This document shows positions 1 through 23,727 of a stretch of DNA of 25,902 nucleotides, one piece after another. The notes under the pieces were generated by a model. The model saw only the letters and a list, made by a program, of their open reading frames with translations, was not told where the DNA came from and ran no database searches. The position numbers were made by a program, and so were the translations under genes. Origin of the DNA: Armatimonadia bacterium (GTDB lineage Bacteria > Armatimonadota > Zipacnadia > Zipacnadales > UBA11051); the NCBI GenBank assembly GCA_039683575.1, contig JBDKRC010000123.1, positions 1 through 25,902 of the forward strand. Direction: 5' to 3'. The stretch's first letter is position 1; each line of letters begins with the position of its first letter.

Positions 1-362
1 CGGCCCATGCGCGGTAGGCCGGAACACGTCAAGACACGAAGGCACCCTCATTCGAGGGAGCCTTCTTGCGGTTCCCGGCGGCGCGGGCTTCCAGCCCGCC
101 TCGGGTCCGTCCTGTCTCCCCCCGCCCTTGCTCCACCGTCTCTCTTCCGTAGGCCCGAAGGGCCGCAAGGCCCTGGGCCGCTGTCTATCTTCCGTAGGCC
201 CGAAGGGCCGTCAGCCACTAGCCAGGGCCGCAAGGCCCTGGGCCGCGGCGCCCCTCCGCTAGAGCCCCGAAGGGGCGCCAGCCCCTCTCTATGCATGCCG
301 GCCCATGCGCCGTAGGCCGGAACACGTCAAGAAAAGAAGACCCCCTCATGGAGGGGGTCTTC
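1..362. repeat. Direct repeat of a ~65-bp unit (1-65 and 299-362), each copy ending in a hairpin
   Basis: 1-34 and 299-332 are identical except one base (CGGCCCATGCGC[G/C]GTAGGCCGGAACACGTCAAGA). Each is followed by a GAAG..CCCTC-loop-GAGGG..CTTC hairpin. The first copy may be cut by the window edge. Confidence 0.85.
143..280. repeat. Cluster of REP-like GC hairpins
   Basis: TCTTCCGTAGGCCCGAAGGGCCG occurs twice (143-165, 188-210), AGGGCCGCAAGGCCCTGGGCCGC occurs twice, and GCCCCGAAGGGGC once. A GTAG tetranucleotide sits at the foot of the GGCCC-GAA-GGGCC hairpins, as in REP elements. Confidence 0.6.
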
Positions 363-17062: not shown

Positions 17063-17785
17063 CTATTGCGCCATCCCCTTAGCCGCCTCCGTGTAGATGT
17101 CCTCAGCGCCCAATACAGCCCCAAAGACCTTCACCTCATCCATCAACCCGTCGAAAGCGTATGCGTTCTTCCGTCCGATGTAGTTGCCGATAGTCATGGT
17201 GCGCTTGGCAGCCATGATGGGGACCGTGAGGTCCTGTTCGGCCGCGAGTTCACAGTCAAGGTACAGGGTGAGCCTGTGCCCATCGTAGGTGAGGGCCACA
17301 TGACTCCAAAAGCCCGCCGGAACAGACCATTCTGGAGAAGAGACTGTCGGCTCGGTCGAATCGGCAGCCCCGAACTGGAACATCGCCCTGCTCCAGAAGT
17401 AGCGTAGACGCCATCCGGGCCAGGGGCCGTCGCCGCTCTTGTCACCCTTGTCGCTGATGATCTCATACGTGGCGCCACCGGCGGCCGGCTTTATCCAGGC
17501 CATTACCGTCATCGCCGCCGGGGCCCGGAGCTGCTCGGCCTGCTTGACCTCCAGGTACTGCTGCGACGCGCCTGTGAACCGCAGGCAGTTGCCTATGACC
17601 CCCGGAACGACTTCCGGCAACTTCCCGTCAAGGCCACTGGCCACCGCCTCATGTCCATTCCCCGAAGCATCCGCGACAACCCCGTTAGCGATAGTCTCCA
17701 TAGGCCAGTAGGCCAGTGGCTCCACCGCACAGGCTGCGCCACACCACAGCACACACAGGACAATCAGCACCCGGTTACTTCGCAT
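17063..17785 (-). CDS. Secreted LamG-like jellyroll (concanavalin A-like lectin) domain protein
   Basis: Signal peptide MRSNRVLIVLCVLWCGAACA; AYWPM, DASGNG, TVMAWIKP, WSHVALTYDG, FDGLMDEVKVF. Start at 17785 overlaps the upstream gene's 3' end. Confidence 0.85.
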   Translation of the reverse strand: MRSNRVLIVLCVLWCGAACAVEPLAYWPMETIANGVVADASGNGHEAVASGLDGKLPEVVPGVIGNCLRFTGASQQYLEVKQAEQLRAPAAMTVMAWIKPAAGGATYEIISDKGDKSGDGPWPGWRLRYFWSRAMFQFGAADSTEPTVSSPEWSVPAGFWSHVALTYDGHRLTLYLDCELAAEQDLTVPIMAAKRTMTIGNYIGRKNAYAFDGLMDEVKVFGAVLGAEDIYTEAAKGMAQ

Positions 17786-20684
17786 ACACCTCGACCTCCT
17801 GCAGAGCGCTCTGGGTCTTGTCGGGCTGCAACGCTGTGACAGAGATGCGGATGGTGCTCGTTTTGACGGGGTCGAAGGTGCCGCTGAGCGGCTGGCCGGA
17901 CAGCTTGCCAACGGTCTTCCACTGATCCGCTCCCGCAGGCACCTGCACTTCGGCTTCGAGAATGGTCGTCGTGTAGGCAACCACGCGCCCAACAGTCTGT
18001 TCGGCCGGCCAGATCACCTGGAGCCACTCACCGAGCTTCTTGGGGGTCTTTGACAGCCAGCCCATGCCGCGGGTGATACCGTCGAGGACGCGGTCGGGCT
18101 CGTTGCCATATTGCGAGCCACTGGATACCACCACGCGTGTGCCGTTGTCCTCGAAGGCCAGGTTGCCGGGCTTGGCCCGGGCAGCATTGTCCTTATCAAT
18201 GGCAGCCTGGGTCGCTGAGACCTGCTCACGGCCCGCGAGAGACTCCCGAGTGGTATACACGTGTGAAGCGTAGATGCCGAACTGGTCGGTGAAGCTGCCG
18301 TTGGCGAGGCTGACCTTGCGCCCTTCGGAGACTACGGAGAGGCTCGCCGGAGCGCCCTTCACTGTGAAAGTCGCTTCCTGGGGCTCTGTGGCGGTGTTAA
18401 CGGCGAAGAGGGTCAGTTCATTGCCAACCTTGCGCAAGCTGACATGCATGTGTTCCGGCTTGGCGGCCTTGACCGTCACGGCCTGCGGCACGTTATTGGC
18501 CAATACAGCATCCTTGAGGTCTGCTATCTCACGCGCCACGAAGGGCATGCCCAGATACAGGTCGGGGTAGTTGCGGTATTGGCTGTAGGTGTACCAGAGG
18601 AAGCCTTTGCCACCGTAGACCACTGCCTGGTAGGTCTGGTTGCGCAGTTCGGTCAGATTCGGGCCACGGTTGCCGGCTTTGCCATAGTCGCCGTAGTTGA
18701 AGCCCTGCGGCGTCACCCACGCCGGTTTGCGGCCATTGGTGGCGTCCTTGATGGCCAGCATGAACTGGCTGGTCTTCTCAATGGGGGAGGCGGCGAGGCC
18801 ACCCTTGAGAAAGCAGGGGTACGGATCAGGCATGAGGACGTCCCCACCACGTTCGTAGCGGTAGATGCCTGCGACGGTATCGTTGAGCATGATGCAGGGG
18901 TGATACGGGTCGGCCTCACGCACCGTCTCGTAGATCTCCTGCGAGCGTTGCGGCAACACCGGTACCAGCTCCGGCTCGTCGGCCATGTACCATGCCAGGA
19001 GCGCCGGATGGTCCTTGAGGGCGTTGACGCGGTTGCGAAGCGCTTCCCGCTCCTGATCGTTGAGCGGACGCTTGGCATCATCGCCGCGGTTCATGAAGGC
19101 CGGGCTGTAGGGGCTGAAGGTCACGTAGGCCCCCTTGGCGGCAATCGGGTTCATCCACTCGCGAACCACATCGTCTTTGAAGTACTCCCGGCTATACGTC
19201 TGCAGGATGGTGTAGCCTTCCCTGGCGTCCCAGTCCTCGATGTCCTGGCTGAACCAGCCGAAGGGGAGAAAGGGGGTGCCGTTGTGGAGAAGGACGTTGC
19301 TCTCGTCAAAGCGCCACTCCTGGCCGTTGGGGGGCGGTGGCAGCTTGCGGAGGAGCTTTTGCGCACTGTGGACCACCTGGCCGCTCTTGTCCACGAGGCT
19401 GACCAGGAGCTTGTAGTCACCGATGACCAGCTTGTCGGCAGGCAGGCTCAGCTTGACCTGCGGCGCAGCGGCCACCGGTGTCGCCTGCGCGATGGGCCGG
19501 GGCTCGCCCTCGGACTTAGCGGGCAGAAGAACAGCGTGAAGCTGCTTGCCAGCCAGTGATTGGGGCGACAGAGCCGAGGTGACGGTGAACTCTATATTGT
19601 CCAGCTTCTGGGTCGCATAGATACAGTCGCGGTAGCCGGGGCGAGTGATGTCTATCGCGAGGGGTGTGTAGCTGAGGGAGAGCGGAACCTGTTTGACGTA
19701 GAGGATGTCATCGGGGTTGCTGCGGTCGCTGATGACGAAGCGAAGCGCCACGTTGCCATCTTTGCGCACCGGCACGCTGAAGCTGATTTCCCGGGCCTGG
19801 CCGCCATCAAAGCCCTGAGTAGTGGCTTTGCCGGAGGTGTGGCCGCCATCAGGGTAGTAAAGCTCCGGCTTGATCCTGATGAACCGGAACTTGCCTGTGT
19901 CATTCGTCAGGTGGGTCTTGCCCAGATATGAGAGTTGCTCACCCTCCATCTGGAAGCTGGCCTCGTAGGGCGGGCGCATGGTCCACATGTAGCGGGTGAG
20001 GTCCGCGCCGGGGAGCTTGAGGGTGGCGTAGAGGTTGGGCTGGTGGAAGCCGCCGCGTCCTTCGGTGAAGCTGGAAAGCTCCTGCGTGCCCGCCTGCCGC
20101 TCACGAGCCACGTTGAGGGCCCAATCGCCCTTGGAGGCGCCTGTCAGGCCCAGTTCGACGAAAGGTATCGCGACCTCGACAGTCCAGGACTGCGGCCCCT
20201 TCACGATCTTGGCCTGCCAGTTGGCGTCCCATTCGGAGGTCCGCACGTTTCCGCCCTGCCGCAGCTCGGCGTCATACTGGGTTCCGAGAGCGTTTACGCA
20301 AAAGTGGTAGTAATCGAGCCGGGCACTGTTGGGCACCACCATGAGCTCGATCACGTCATCGCTATGGACCCGGCCGTCACGCTTGGTCTCCCGGGCCACC
20401 AGCTTGTCCATCTGGGGCTCGAGCAACTCGACTGCGAAATACAGGTTCTGCTGGTCAAAGGCGACCTTGAAGCGGGTCTGGGCGGTCGCTGGCTTCAGGC
20501 CCTCGCCGAGGAGGGTGAAGTTGTTGTACCATTCGCCCTGCTGCCAGACAGCGTCGTCGAGCTTGCCGTCCAGCACCGGGGCCGCGGCGGCTTTGAGGGC
20601 GGTCACGGTCGGTGGAGCAGCAACGGCAAGGGCCACTGTCAGGAGGAACAGTGTGGAGAGGATAAGCGTCTTGATGGGGCGCAT
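17775..20684 (-). CDS. Large secreted carbohydrate-active protein: CBM9-like domain, glycoside-hydrolase-like TIM barrel, C-terminal discoidin-like domain
   Basis: Signal peptide; PVLDGKLDDAVW...WTVEVAIPF (CBM9-like); NGTPFLPFG, DHPALLAWYMADEP, DVLMPDPYP, VYGGKGFLWY (GH-like barrel); NLAF...EWLQVIW...EVEVY (F5/8-like). Start moved to 20684 behind AGGTGA. Confidence 0.7.
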   Translation of the reverse strand: MRPIKTLILSTLFLLTVALAVAAPPTVTALKAAAAPVLDGKLDDAVWQQGEWYNNFTLLGEGLKPATAQTRFKVAFDQQNLYFAVELLEPQMDKLVARETKRDGRVHSDDVIELMVVPNSARLDYYHFCVNALGTQYDAELRQGGNVRTSEWDANWQAKIVKGPQSWTVEVAIPFVELGLTGASKGDWALNVARERQAGTQELSSFTEGRGGFHQPNLYATLKLPGADLTRYMWTMRPPYEASFQMEGEQLSYLGKTHLTNDTGKFRFIRIKPELYYPDGGHTSGKATTQGFDGGQAREISFSVPVRKDGNVALRFVISDRSNPDDILYVKQVPLSLSYTPLAIDITRPGYRDCIYATQKLDNIEFTVTSALSPQSLAGKQLHAVLLPAKSEGEPRPIAQATPVAAAPQVKLSLPADKLVIGDYKLLVSLVDKSGQVVHSAQKLLRKLPPPPNGQEWRFDESNVLLHNGTPFLPFGWFSQDIEDWDAREGYTILQTYSREYFKDDVVREWMNPIAAKGAYVTFSPYSPAFMNRGDDAKRPLNDQEREALRNRVNALKDHPALLAWYMADEPELVPVLPQRSQEIYETVREADPYHPCIMLNDTVAGIYRYERGGDVLMPDPYPCFLKGGLAASPIEKTSQFMLAIKDATNGRKPAWVTPQGFNYGDYGKAGNRGPNLTELRNQTYQAVVYGGKGFLWYTYSQYRNYPDLYLGMPFVAREIADLKDAVLANNVPQAVTVKAAKPEHMHVSLRKVGNELTLFAVNTATEPQEATFTVKGAPASLSVVSEGRKVSLANGSFTDQFGIYASHVYTTRESLAGREQVSATQAAIDKDNAARAKPGNLAFEDNGTRVVVSSGSQYGNEPDRVLDGITRGMGWLSKTPKKLGEWLQVIWPAEQTVGRVVAYTTTILEAEVQVPAGADQWKTVGKLSGQPLSGTFDPVKTSTIRISVTALQPDKTQSALQEVEVYAK

Positions 20685-20827
20685 GAGGTCACCTACCAGG
20701 GGAATCATAGTATGTTCAGCTCTGCCGGACGGGAGTAGGTTGAACGGCGCCATGCCGCTCTCCTTCTCCGCAGCTCGCAGTAACTGTCAACTTGCGTTCC
20801 CCTGGCAGGTTTGGTCGTTAGAAGCTA

Positions 20828-22249
20828 TCAGAAGCGCAGGTCACGCTCGCCTTGCTTGATGCGCGTCAGGAACTCCTTGGCCTTCGCGCGGGTCTTGTCG
20901 CTGGGTATGGCCTCTAGTTCGCGGGTAATAGCCTGCTCTCCCAGCTTGCGCAGGGGCTCGTCAGCATAGTCTTCGAGGTATTCCTGGAAGGTCAGGATTG
21001 CGTTCGCCTGGCAGACGTTGCCGATCTGCCCTGCTTTGGCCAGTTTCATGAACCGGTCACCCGTGCGCCCCTCGCGGTAGCACGCGGTGCAGTAGCTGGG
21101 GATGTAGCCTTCCTGAATGAGGCCGGTTAGTACCTCCGTCGGCGCGCGATGGTCTTCGGGCTCAAACTGCGGCGCTACGTCCTCGAAGCCCAGTTTGCCG
21201 GCGTGTGCATACCCACCGACGCCGGTGCAGGACCCTGCACTGACCTGGGAGATGCCGACGGCGACGACTTCTTCGCGGAAGCCCTGGGGCTCACGGGTAG
21301 AGAGGATCATGCCGGTGTAGGGAACCGCCAGACGCAACACGGCGACGAGCTTCTTGAAGTCGGCATCGGCCACAATGTGGGGGAATCCAGAGGAGTCGAT
21401 CCCTTCCGCGCTGCGAATCCGAGGCACCGAGAGGGTATGGGGGCCGACGCCCCTGGCCGCCTCCAGATGCTCGGCGTGCATCAGCATCCCGATGGTGTCG
21501 TACTGCCAGTCATACAGGCCATACAGCACGCCCAGACCCACATCATCGATGCCCCCCTCCATGGCGCGGTCATGGGCTTCGGTGTGCCAGGCGTAGTTGT
21601 GCTTGGGACCGGAGGGGTGAACCTGTTCGTATGTCGGCTTGTGGTAGGTTTCCTGGAAGAGGATGTAGGTGCCGATGCCCGCGTCTTTCAGCCGCCGATA
21701 GTCTTCCACCGTCGTGGCGGCGATGTTTATGTTTACCCGGCGGATAGCCCCGTTGTCGAGCTTGAGCGAGTACACAGTCTCGATGCATTCGATGATGTAG
21801 TCGAGGGGACAGTTGACAGGGTCCTCCCCCGCCTCCAGAGCCAGGCGTTTGTGGCCCATTCGCTCCAGTACCTGAACCTCTTCGAGCACTTCCTCCTGAC
21901 TGAGGCGCCGCCGGCTGGAGCAGTTGTCATGGTTGTAGGCGCAATAGGTGCAGCGGTTGACGCAGTGGTCGGACAGATAAAGCGGGGCGAAGAGCACAAT
22001 CCGGCGTCCGTAGATATGCTCTTTCACCTTGCGGGCGAGAGCATAGACAGCTTCCAGCGTCTCGGGATCATCCACGTTCAGCAGCACGGCGGCTTCACGA
22101 TGGGTCAAACCCGCGAAAGTGGCGGCCTTGTCCAGGATGGCCTGCACGCGCGCGGGATCGCTCGCTTCGCGCTTGCCCTGGGCCAGTGTGGCCTCTACCT
22201 CCTCATGATCGATGAAATCCACGGCCTTCGACGACTTCGGGTCATACAT
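20828..22249 (-). CDS. hydG: [FeFe]-hydrogenase H-cluster radical SAM maturase HydG
   Basis: FAPLYLSDHCVNRCTYC (CxxxCxxC), GHKRLALEAGE, GAIRRVNINIA, LFQETYH, and C-terminal YCTACYREGRTGDRFM...IGNVC (CxxC-x22-C auxiliary cluster, which distinguishes HydG from ThiH). Start moved to ATG 22249. Confidence 0.93.
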   Translation of the reverse strand: MYDPKSSKAVDFIDHEEVEATLAQGKREASDPARVQAILDKAATFAGLTHREAAVLLNVDDPETLEAVYALARKVKEHIYGRRIVLFAPLYLSDHCVNRCTYCAYNHDNCSSRRRLSQEEVLEEVQVLERMGHKRLALEAGEDPVNCPLDYIIECIETVYSLKLDNGAIRRVNINIAATTVEDYRRLKDAGIGTYILFQETYHKPTYEQVHPSGPKHNYAWHTEAHDRAMEGGIDDVGLGVLYGLYDWQYDTIGMLMHAEHLEAARGVGPHTLSVPRIRSAEGIDSSGFPHIVADADFKKLVAVLRLAVPYTGMILSTREPQGFREEVVAVGISQVSAGSCTGVGGYAHAGKLGFEDVAPQFEPEDHRAPTEVLTGLIQEGYIPSYCTACYREGRTGDRFMKLAKAGQIGNVCQANAILTFQEYLEDYADEPLRKLGEQAITRELEAIPSDKTRAKAKEFLTRIKQGERDLRF

Positions 22250-22308
22250 AATGATGGTTCCTTCCTGCCTCAAGCATGCCATAGTGCACACACGCGCGTG
22301 CGCGCTGA

Positions 22309-22554
22309 CTATTCCCTGGTGAGTGCCGTCTTGACGGCGACGTGGCGAACGCGGCCCAGACGCCCTGTGAGTGCGCTAATCTCATCAGTCGCGCCATCCA
22401 CGATGATCGAGATGACTGACACCCCGCGCTCGCGATACGGGATACCCATACGGCCAATGATGAAAGGAGCGTATTCGTGGAGGACCGCATTCACTTCTTC
22501 GGCCGCAGAAAGGTCCTCCACGACGATTCCAACCACTCCGAGGCGTTTGTTCAT
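22309..22554 (-). CDS. TM1266-family iron-only hydrogenase system putative regulator
   Basis: MNKRLGVVGIVVED...VNAVLHEY...IIGRMGIPYRERGVSVISIIVDG...ISALTGRLG; adjacent to hydG. RBS GAGGAG. Confidence 0.9.
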   Translation of the reverse strand: MNKRLGVVGIVVEDLSAAEEVNAVLHEYAPFIIGRMGIPYRERGVSVISIIVDGATDEISALTGRLGRVRHVAVKTALTRE

Positions 22555-22592
22555 TGCTGTCTCCTCGCCTCCGACGGGTACCAACCGGATGC

Positions 22593-22627
22593 AAAAACAC
22601 CCTCTCGCGAGCATGCAAGAGGGTGTT
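22593..22627 (-). terminator. Intrinsic terminator inside the TM1266-hydG 5' leader
   Basis: RNA AACACCCUCUUGC-AUGCUC-GCGAGAGGGUGUU-UUU: 13-bp stem with one G-U, ending in a U5 tract about 38 nt upstream of the ATG. Confidence 0.8.
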
Positions 22628-22737
22628 ATCCCTTATCTGTCATATGCCCGCGCCTGGCGCGCCTTCCCGCTTGGGTGTTAAGCCTCACGGTCAGGTCTGA
22701 ATTCGCACCGACAGGAGAATCAATCCTCCTGTCCGTT
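22593..22737 (-). ncRNA. Candidate cis-regulatory RNA (riboswitch/attenuator), class unassigned
   Basis: Lies between a promoter and a leader terminator, and contains three hairpins (22710-22733, 22662-22695, 22649-22661). Confidence 0.55.
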
Positions 22738-22743
22738 GTCGTA

Positions 22744-22772
22744 AGTGTAACTCCTCAAAACCTGGCCGTCAA
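22744..22772 (-). promoter_or_regulatory. Sigma70-type promoter for TM1266-hydG
   Basis: Minus strand TTGACG (22772-22767), 17 nt spacer, TACACT (22749-22744). Confidence 0.7.
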
Positions 22773-22902
22773 CCGGGTAATGGGGATCAACAGTCGCGGC
22801 TGGCGGGGAGGATGACCGGCGCGGACGAAGAAGCTGACAGACTAATCTGACCATACAGCGGCCGCAAGCGGCGCTGGCGTTCCCGCATCAAGGAGATCAA
22901 CC

Positions 22903-23727
22903 ATGTTTCTGAACCACTGCCACATCTTCCCCCACGGGGCCTTCCCGGATCAGCCTGAGTTGGGGACGCTGCCAGAACTGGACCGGTTCATGAATGAGAC
23001 GGGGATCGAGAAGACACTGGCCATCGCTCCCTTCTGGGGACCGAAGAGTGCAGAACTCCTAGGGGGCGAGGAGATAAATGGATGGCTTTACAGGAACCTG
23101 CAGGAGTACCCCCGCATTCAGGGGCTGGTGACAGTGTCGCCGAAGGACCCGCGGGCCTGTGAGCTCGTTGAGGAGTACGTCAGCAAGGGCTTCGTGGGCA
23201 TCAAGACCCACCCACCCGTCATGGGCTTCCGAATTGACGAGCCTGCCTGCGATGACATGTACGCCCTGGCGGCGGAATTGGGCGTGTTCGTGCTCTTCCA
23301 CACCGGAGTACATGGTGGGCGTCTGGAGGACTACCAGCCGCTACTCGTTGACAATATCATGCAGCGCCACCCGCGCCTCAAGGTCATCATCGAACACATG
23401 GGGGTCTCGGATGGCATCGGGCGGGGCTTCTTCGACCAGGCGCTGGCAGTGGTCTACAACCATGGCTCCGACTGGCGCAACGGCGGGGTCTACGCGGGGA
23501 TAACGGGCATTGCCAAGCCACAGCACCGCCAGCTTGTGGCCGATACGGTCCGAGAGGCGGGGGCAGGCCGGACGATCTTTGGGCTGGATTGGCCTCACAT
23601 GCGCGGGCACACGGCCGCTATCGCACGCTTTGAGGCGGAAATGGCAGTAATGAGGTCGCTCGGCCTGTCTGAGGAGCAAGAGCAGATGATCTTCGGGGGA
23701 ACGTTAACCGCGGCGACCGAAGGCTGA
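22903..23727 (+). CDS. Amidohydrolase-family (Amidohydro_2-like) TIM-barrel metallohydrolase
   Basis: NHCHIF (HxH), GFVGIKTHP, FHTG, IIEHMG, IFGLDWP. RBS AAGGAG. Confidence 0.87.
   Translation: MFLNHCHIFPHGAFPDQPELGTLPELDRFMNETGIEKTLAIAPFWGPKSAELLGGEEINGWLYRNLQEYPRIQGLVTVSPKDPRACELVEEYVSKGFVGIKTHPPVMGFRIDEPACDDMYALAAELGVFVLFHTGVHGGRLEDYQPLLVDNIMQRHPRLKVIIEHMGVSDGIGRGFFDQALAVVYNHGSDWRNGGVYAGITGIAKPQHRQLVADTVREAGAGRTIFGLDWPHMRGHTAAIARFEAEMAVMRSLGLSEEQEQMIFGGTLTAATEG

Follow-up and report, generated by a model that had tools for sequence, protein, structure and literature searches.

The window, as we call the whole 25,902-nt stretch of DNA from an Armatimonadia bacterium that was analysed (contig JBDKRC010000123.1, assembly GCA_039683575.1), carries on its minus strand an operon in which a gene of the TM1266 family and hydG follow a leader of 183 nt (Table 1). 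The initial annotation had named both genes, and profile scores bore this out: the TM1266-family product scored 114 bits against PF21699 and 114 bits against TIGR03959 (cut-offs 27 and 60.8), and HydG scored 709 bits against TIGR03955, for which the curated cut-off is 312. The product of the gene after hydG (17775-20753, minus strand), a protein of 992 aa, has CBM9 and DUF7402 domains and no relation to hydrogenase maturation. Elsewhere in the same genome, two copies of hydE and a hydF were found on other contigs, where the leader does not precede them, and a second, weaker HydG-like gene (contig C12, 7913-9217, minus strand) scores 315 bits, just above the cut-off.

Table 1. Positions of the TM1266-hydG operon and of its leader elements in the window; energies are those of the individual hairpins.
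Feature	Position	Strand	Details
Promoter, sigma-70 type	22744-22772	minus	TTGACG 22772-22767, 17-nt spacer, TACACT 22749-22744
H1 (module A)	22707-22736	minus	12-bp hairpin at the transcript 5' end, -17.0 kcal/mol
H1-H2 linker	22696-22706	minus	variable sequence, near-constant length of 10-12 nt in the leader alignment
H2 (module B core)	22662-22695	minus	-12.4 kcal/mol; GA/GA loop and second purine-purine loop
H2 3' strand	22662-22675	minus	proposed antiterminator partner of the terminator 5' arm
H3	22649-22661	minus	CGCGC/GCGCG hairpin adjoining H2, -6.2 kcal/mol
Intrinsic terminator	22593-22627	minus	13-bp stem 22627-22596, -22.3 kcal/mol; 5' arm 22627-22615, 3' arm 22608-22596, U5 22597-22593
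Ribosome-binding site	22561-22566	minus	GAGGAG, 6 nt upstream of the ATG
TM1266-family gene	22309-22554	minus	81 aa, single domain, NikR C-terminal/ACT fold
hydG	20828-22291	minus	radical-SAM maturase of [FeFe]-hydrogenase

Upstream of these genes the initial annotation had described a promoter, the hairpins H1 to H3, a 13-bp terminator with five U residues and a repeated UAACACCC. All of these elements were present on the minus strand, with UAACACCC at 22680-22673 and again at 22628-22621, and the succession of promoter, structured RNA, terminator and gene that it had read from them was confirmed by promoter scanning, by folding and by the leader alignment. The promoter scan found one promoter-like site within 22200-23100, the TTGACG/TACACT pair, against 0.4 in shuffled sequence, which places the predicted transcription start near 22737. 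A 211-nt stretch was found to fold more stably than all of its dinucleotide shuffles (200/200, z = -4.70). Within it, H1 has two conserved features, a GGA...UYC top and, close to its base, a G-G mismatch, and H2 is built from 3 bp, the GA/GA loop, 4 bp, the second purine-purine loop, 2 bp and a variable end loop. The U run of the terminator ends the leader structure about 38 nt upstream of the ATG at 22554, such that a promoter, a GC-rich hairpin with a U run and a start codon follow one another in that order. A simple terminator scan listed no site, because it applies a U-run rule that fails when, as here, two of the five U residues belong to the stem. The one metatranscriptome run searched gave a single 181-nt contig, which lay inside the TM1266 coding region.

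The leader did not match any known RNA class. Searching with cmscan against Rfam 15 (4227 models) at gathering scores gave no match in the leader, and a search of 22450-22950 at E <= 10 returned just two irrelevant chance matches, both on the plus strand. Likewise, for 20 related leaders from other phyla, a search of Rfam 15 with the limit set at E <= 1 brought up two weak matches of no relevance (29 and 25.8 bits, where the gathering scores are 105 and 41, respectively), which agrees with the view of the initial annotation that the element was unassigned. Its suggestion that fragments of the leader recall the SAM-I and TPP riboswitches failed for the same reason: on 22450-22950 neither the SAM-I model (RF00162, a four-way junction of P1-P4), at the gathering score or at E <= 10, nor the TPP model (RF00059), whose UGAGA element is missing from the leader, gave a match. 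A kink-turn was also discarded, as both H2 loops are symmetric (2x2) and have no three-nucleotide bulge. Far from the leader, a full-length Acido-Lenti-1 RNA at 196-241 (minus strand; 40.2 bits, gathering score 37) was the sole Rfam match in the window at gathering score. We found no description of the leader RNA in the literature, where supplements might still list such an RNA, and the leader apparently belongs to a widespread RNA family that has so far gone undescribed.

Conserved, covarying structure in homologous leaders, which the initial annotation had put forward as a check on its proposal, was found for H1, for H2 and for the leader as a whole. Among 40 other genomes searched, the leader DNA was 77-84% identical in four relatives, of which three belong to a different family. 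When 19 Armatimonadota leaders were aligned, all four helices were kept, with 92.2% of cells paired, and compensatory changes were seen in 19 of the 39 pairs, a value that none of 500 shuffles reached. These changes were spread over H1 (8/12 pairs), H2 (4/9) and the terminator (7/13); H3 showed none in its five pairs, although 91.6% of its cells were paired across the alignment. In 14 of 14 Armatimonadota leaders (10 scored by script, 4 judged by eye), a -35 box of the TTGAC type stands 17-18 nt upstream of a TAnnnT -10 box that ends 7-9 nt before H1, and therefore the transcript should begin just upstream of H1. G-U pairs in H1 and in H3 were each conserved in 17 of the 19 leaders, and therefore the RNA strand is fixed. 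This strand assignment bears on the idea that the conserved sequence is not an RNA element at all, and acts instead as a DNA operator for a transcription factor such as Rex, for which a DAP-seq study (PMC8457756) gives predicted sites in Clostridium thermocellum, both at hydG and at the TM1266 gene. On the other DNA strand, however, the conserved G-U pairs would become C-A mismatches; moreover, the compensatory changes preserve pairing rather than sequence, and the elements are located past the promoter, over a stretch of about 140 nt. We therefore regard a DNA operator as very improbable.

The hairpins were also found well beyond the Armatimonadota. H2 was located just upstream of TM1266-relative genes in 63 of 80 loci drawn from several phyla, including Bacillota, Nitrospirales, Hydrogenedentes, Holophaga, Treponema and others. 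In an alignment of 53 H2 sequences, six of the nine pairs showed compensatory changes (for example CCG/CGG replaced by CUG/CAG or UUG/CAA), and none of 500 shuffles reached the observed pairing. The corresponding alignment of 24 H1 sequences gave compensatory changes in 9 of 12 pairs with 92% of cells paired, again reached by none of 500 shuffles. Judged from these comparisons, H2 is the most widely conserved part of the leader. H1 accompanies H2 in the Armatimonadota and occurs alone or in tandem in Ruminococcus-like loci, whereas the Bacillota leaders have a different conserved 5' domain ahead of H2. In many Bacillota leaders, L051, L075 and L085 among them, a U-rich run directly follows H3 and a conserved UGCCGU box stands before the terminator; H3 together with this run might serve as an initial, weak terminator. 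Covariance models built for H2 (R2) and H1 (R3) scored 44.4 bits and 39.7 bits at the respective hairpins of the window, the R2 match being the sole one in that genome. Across 151 Clostridia genomes R3 gave weak matches alone (E 0.004-0.01), and across 151 Spirochaetota genomes R2 gave no match beyond the genome from which the search started. Of 30 further Clostridia leaders, 11 contained looser CUGA...GRAAG hairpins, some in tandem, where 3-4 would be expected.

The association of H2 with the TM1266 gene was strict in the Armatimonadota. R2 matched 8 of 151 genomes, once in each and every time directly 5' of TM1266, with H1 just 5' of H2 in seven of the eight. HydG was found in 38 of these 151 genomes, and the 29 that lacked a TM1266 gene beside hydG gave no R2 match. 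The HydG proteins themselves fell into two score groups: nine genomes scored at least 660 bits, all nine having TM1266 beside hydG, and the other 29 scored 325-547 bits, none having TM1266 beside hydG. This match between score group and TM1266 adjacency suggests that TM1266, hydG and the leader form a cassette that is inherited or transferred as one unit. Metagenomes gave a similar picture with a strict H2 pattern, for which 54 sites were found; 28 had TM1266 behind them at a distance of +71 to +227 nt, 9 were cut by contig ends, and the remaining 17 were set aside as chance occurrences, as they lie inside open frames of GC-rich DNA. The gene of the candidate regulator is thus genetically tied to the RNA (8/8 in Armatimonadota and 28/54 metagenome sites).

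Outside the Armatimonadota, exceptions to the association were seen in adjacency, but none in whether a genome with the RNA has TM1266 at all. In the Clostridia, R2 matched 10 of 151 genomes, six times before TM1266, twice before aspA and twice before hydG, in one of the latter cases with TM1266 coming after hydG; all 10 of these genomes carry TM1266, compared with 97 of 150 overall. The aspA copies consist of a diverged H2 and a terminator before aspartate ammonia-lyase genes (L128, 1480-1680, and L130, minus strand), in two genomes with TM1266 genes elsewhere. In a Treponema locus (L121, contig C15, 1440-1660) a complete second leader, with the 5' domain, H2 and terminator, was found before hypC-hypD about 8 kb from the copy at TM1266, and in it the CAG of H2 is matched by a CUG in the terminator arm.

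It could be argued that such a leader is not regulated at all, with H1 serving as a 5' stability hairpin, the terminator as a leaky brake or insulator, and the distribution simply following the inheritance of a mobile TM1266-hydG cassette. In the window the terminator does win on energy alone, and in the Armatimonadota the RNA, TM1266 and the distinct HydG clade (>=660 bits, that is, at least 660) travel together, and therefore their co-occurrence must partly reflect shared descent. Against this, covariation across several phyla has kept the structures despite sequence drift, the nucleotides of the loops and mismatches are conserved along with the helices, in Treponema the 3' strand of H2 shares nucleotides with the ribosome-binding site, and the motif recurs before the unlinked aspA and hypCD genes. 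An unregulated leader thus seems unlikely to us.

If the leader is a switch, it would work as follows. Transcription would start just upstream of H1, and the nascent RNA would present its sensor hairpins at fixed spacing, H1 first and then H2 stacked on H3. A factor that holds H2 folded would leave the terminator free to form, turning the operon off, whereas opening of H2 would release its purine-rich 3' strand, which could then form a duplex with the terminator's pyrimidine-rich 5' arm, so that polymerase reads through. We lean slightly towards this polarity, in which folded H2 means that the genes are off. It is favoured by three Treponema loci, which have no terminator and in which the 3' strand of H2 carries the ribosome-binding site; with this arrangement, folded H2 should mean off.

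The alternative pairing on which read-through would depend was examined across the family. In 48 of 61 leaders the H2 3' strand found its best partner in the terminator 5' arm, and in 42 of 56 the cognate duplex was somewhat stronger than non-cognate duplexes (-12.97 vs -12.06 kcal/mol, p = 2.7e-4). In spirochaetes, the change of CGG to CAG in H2 is matched by a change of CCG to CUG in the terminator arm, and 6 of 8 H1-only leaders showed an analogous arrangement. In the window itself, the duplex between the H2 3' strand and the terminator 5' arm was weak, at a calculated -10.8 kcal/mol compared with -22.3 for the terminator. A control with shuffled 3' strands was not significant (median z -0.47, with 6 of 61 leaders below -2), because both strands are biased in composition. 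The H2 3' strand resembled the terminator 3' arm at >=8/10 positions (at least eight of ten) in 23 of 62 leaders, and in the window at 7 of 10 (p = 0.67). At the level of sequence comparison, family-wide support for the putative antiterminator pairing is therefore best described as modest.

A different two-partner switch had been suggested in the initial annotation, in which UAACACCC, present once in H2 and once in the 5' arm of the terminator, would give the terminator 3' arm a choice of partners. The repeat is real in the window, where the H2 copy pairs with the terminator 3' arm at -11.4 kcal/mol, but relatives do not share the mechanism. In the closest ones 5-6 nt of the repeat are left, and other Armatimonadota leaders that have all of the helices lack it; this pairing was therefore dropped. 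A helix closing around H2 (GGUGCG/CGCGCC), which appeared in folds of the nascent transcript, was rejected as well, as its positions are not kept in relatives.

What might hold H2 folded? The factor in the scheme above would most likely be the first product of the operon, TM1266, possibly loaded with an effector and feeding back on its own leader. A fold search gave as its nearest solved structures 2NZC and the NikR C domains, consistent with the fold of the NikR C-terminal tetramer domain, and TM1266 has no DNA-binding domain. R35, R41, R43 and K75 are invariant basic residues, and R4 is present in at least 90% of sequences. This fold and these residues, together with the almost invariable position of the gene as the first behind the RNA, favour autoregulation through RNA binding. 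The same fold search turned up no relative that specifically binds RNA, the likeness to ribosomal protein uS10 being generic. However, we know of no ACT or NikR C-terminal domain that binds RNA, which counts against TM1266 as the ligand. Three further observations count against it: the conserved motif of the protein is the same behind every type of leader; many TM1266 genes have no recognisable RNA motif, as R2 matched 10 Clostridia genomes of 151 while TM1266 is carried by 97 of 150, and the looser hairpins reached 11 of 30 leaders; and variants of H2 stand before aspA, hypCD and hydG at sites that do not adjoin TM1266. Weighing these points, we give the proposal that TM1266 protein is the ligand of the RNA a chance a little below even.

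The main competitor is a true riboswitch, in which H2, with H3 and either the 5' domain or H1, would bind a small molecule or ion linked to assembly of the H-cluster, and TM1266 would merely be the first of the controlled genes. Several features of the family speak for this. The leaders combine a conserved, covarying sensor with different output stages, a terminator in most of them and overlap with the ribosome-binding site in the three Treponema loci, as riboswitch classes show; the extra conserved 5' domain in Bacillota would bring the sensor to about 100 nt; and the genes controlled (TM1266-hydG, hydG, aspA and hypCD) make up one functional set. The unrelated H1 and H2 each stand alone in some lineages, in the manner of alternative aptamer classes for one ligand. 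The TM1266 motif GRMGxPYRERGVSVIS gave no sign of following the RNA, being unchanged among proteins behind H1+H2, H2-only and H1-only leaders, and this constancy, the TM1266 genes without the motif RNA and the copies before other genes fit a small-molecule riboswitch equally well. On the other hand, the part that is universally kept is no more than a hairpin, some 30 nt long and containing two purine loops, and two of the Treponema leaders (L086 and L088) show nothing beyond it. Moreover, the strict motif stands almost always directly before TM1266 rather than across the genes of the pathway, and it is absent from HydG genomes in which TM1266 does not lie beside hydG. We consider a riboswitch of this kind a real possibility, yet one that we would not expect to be the answer.

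Returning to TM1266, we therefore tentatively view the leader as a ligand-dependent transcription attenuator of an undescribed family, for which TM1266 would be the most likely factor; as a whole, this description has in our estimation somewhat less than an even chance of being right. With rather more reserve, TM1266 may be the first example of a new class of attenuation proteins that bind RNA, and would then clamp its own leader and those of aspA and hypCD. In such a class, a bare ACT/NikR C-terminal domain, perhaps loaded with an amino acid or a metal, would clamp hairpins with tandem purine loops, and by doing so TM1266 would set the production of hydrogenase-maturation enzymes.

Known attenuation systems offer partial parallels. 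PyrR governs attenuation of the Bacillus pyr operon and HutP acts on the hut operon; as in those systems, a small regulator is encoded by the first gene behind its own leader, and a hairpin stabilised by the regulator would choose between antiterminator and terminator. TM1266 differs from both in having the NikR C-terminal/ACT fold rather than that of a PRTase or of HutP, its RNA binding is putative, and the RNA motifs of its leader are unrelated to theirs and absent from Rfam. TRAP acts on the trp leader and on trpG by reading 11 GAG/UAG repeats in single-stranded RNA. The resemblance here is that one RNA signal would serve both for termination and for hiding a ribosome-binding site, at unlinked genes of a pathway, whereas the TM1266 leaders present a signal that is itself folded, a hairpin carrying purine-purine loops in tandem. 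Among terminator-type riboswitches for cofactor pathways, the Moco RNA motif and the NiCo riboswitch likewise combine a conserved, covarying sensor before cofactor-assembly genes with varied outputs. In contrast to these, the leader described here has no Rfam match, its sensor is much smaller, and it is tied to one small gene instead of to many genes of a pathway.

To our knowledge, the control of HydE, HydF and HydG production, the proteins that build the active site of [FeFe]-hydrogenase, is largely unexplained, and TM1266 has carried the label 'regulator' for some twenty years without a mechanism that we know of. The conserved leader before TM1266 in several phyla provides a concrete control point for hydrogenase maturation, at which the RNA probably switches the maturation genes off in response to a signal. 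Either TM1266 is a new kind of RNA-binding protein, or the leader represents a new riboswitch class that reports on H-cluster assembly, and either outcome would be useful for the engineering of hydrogen production.
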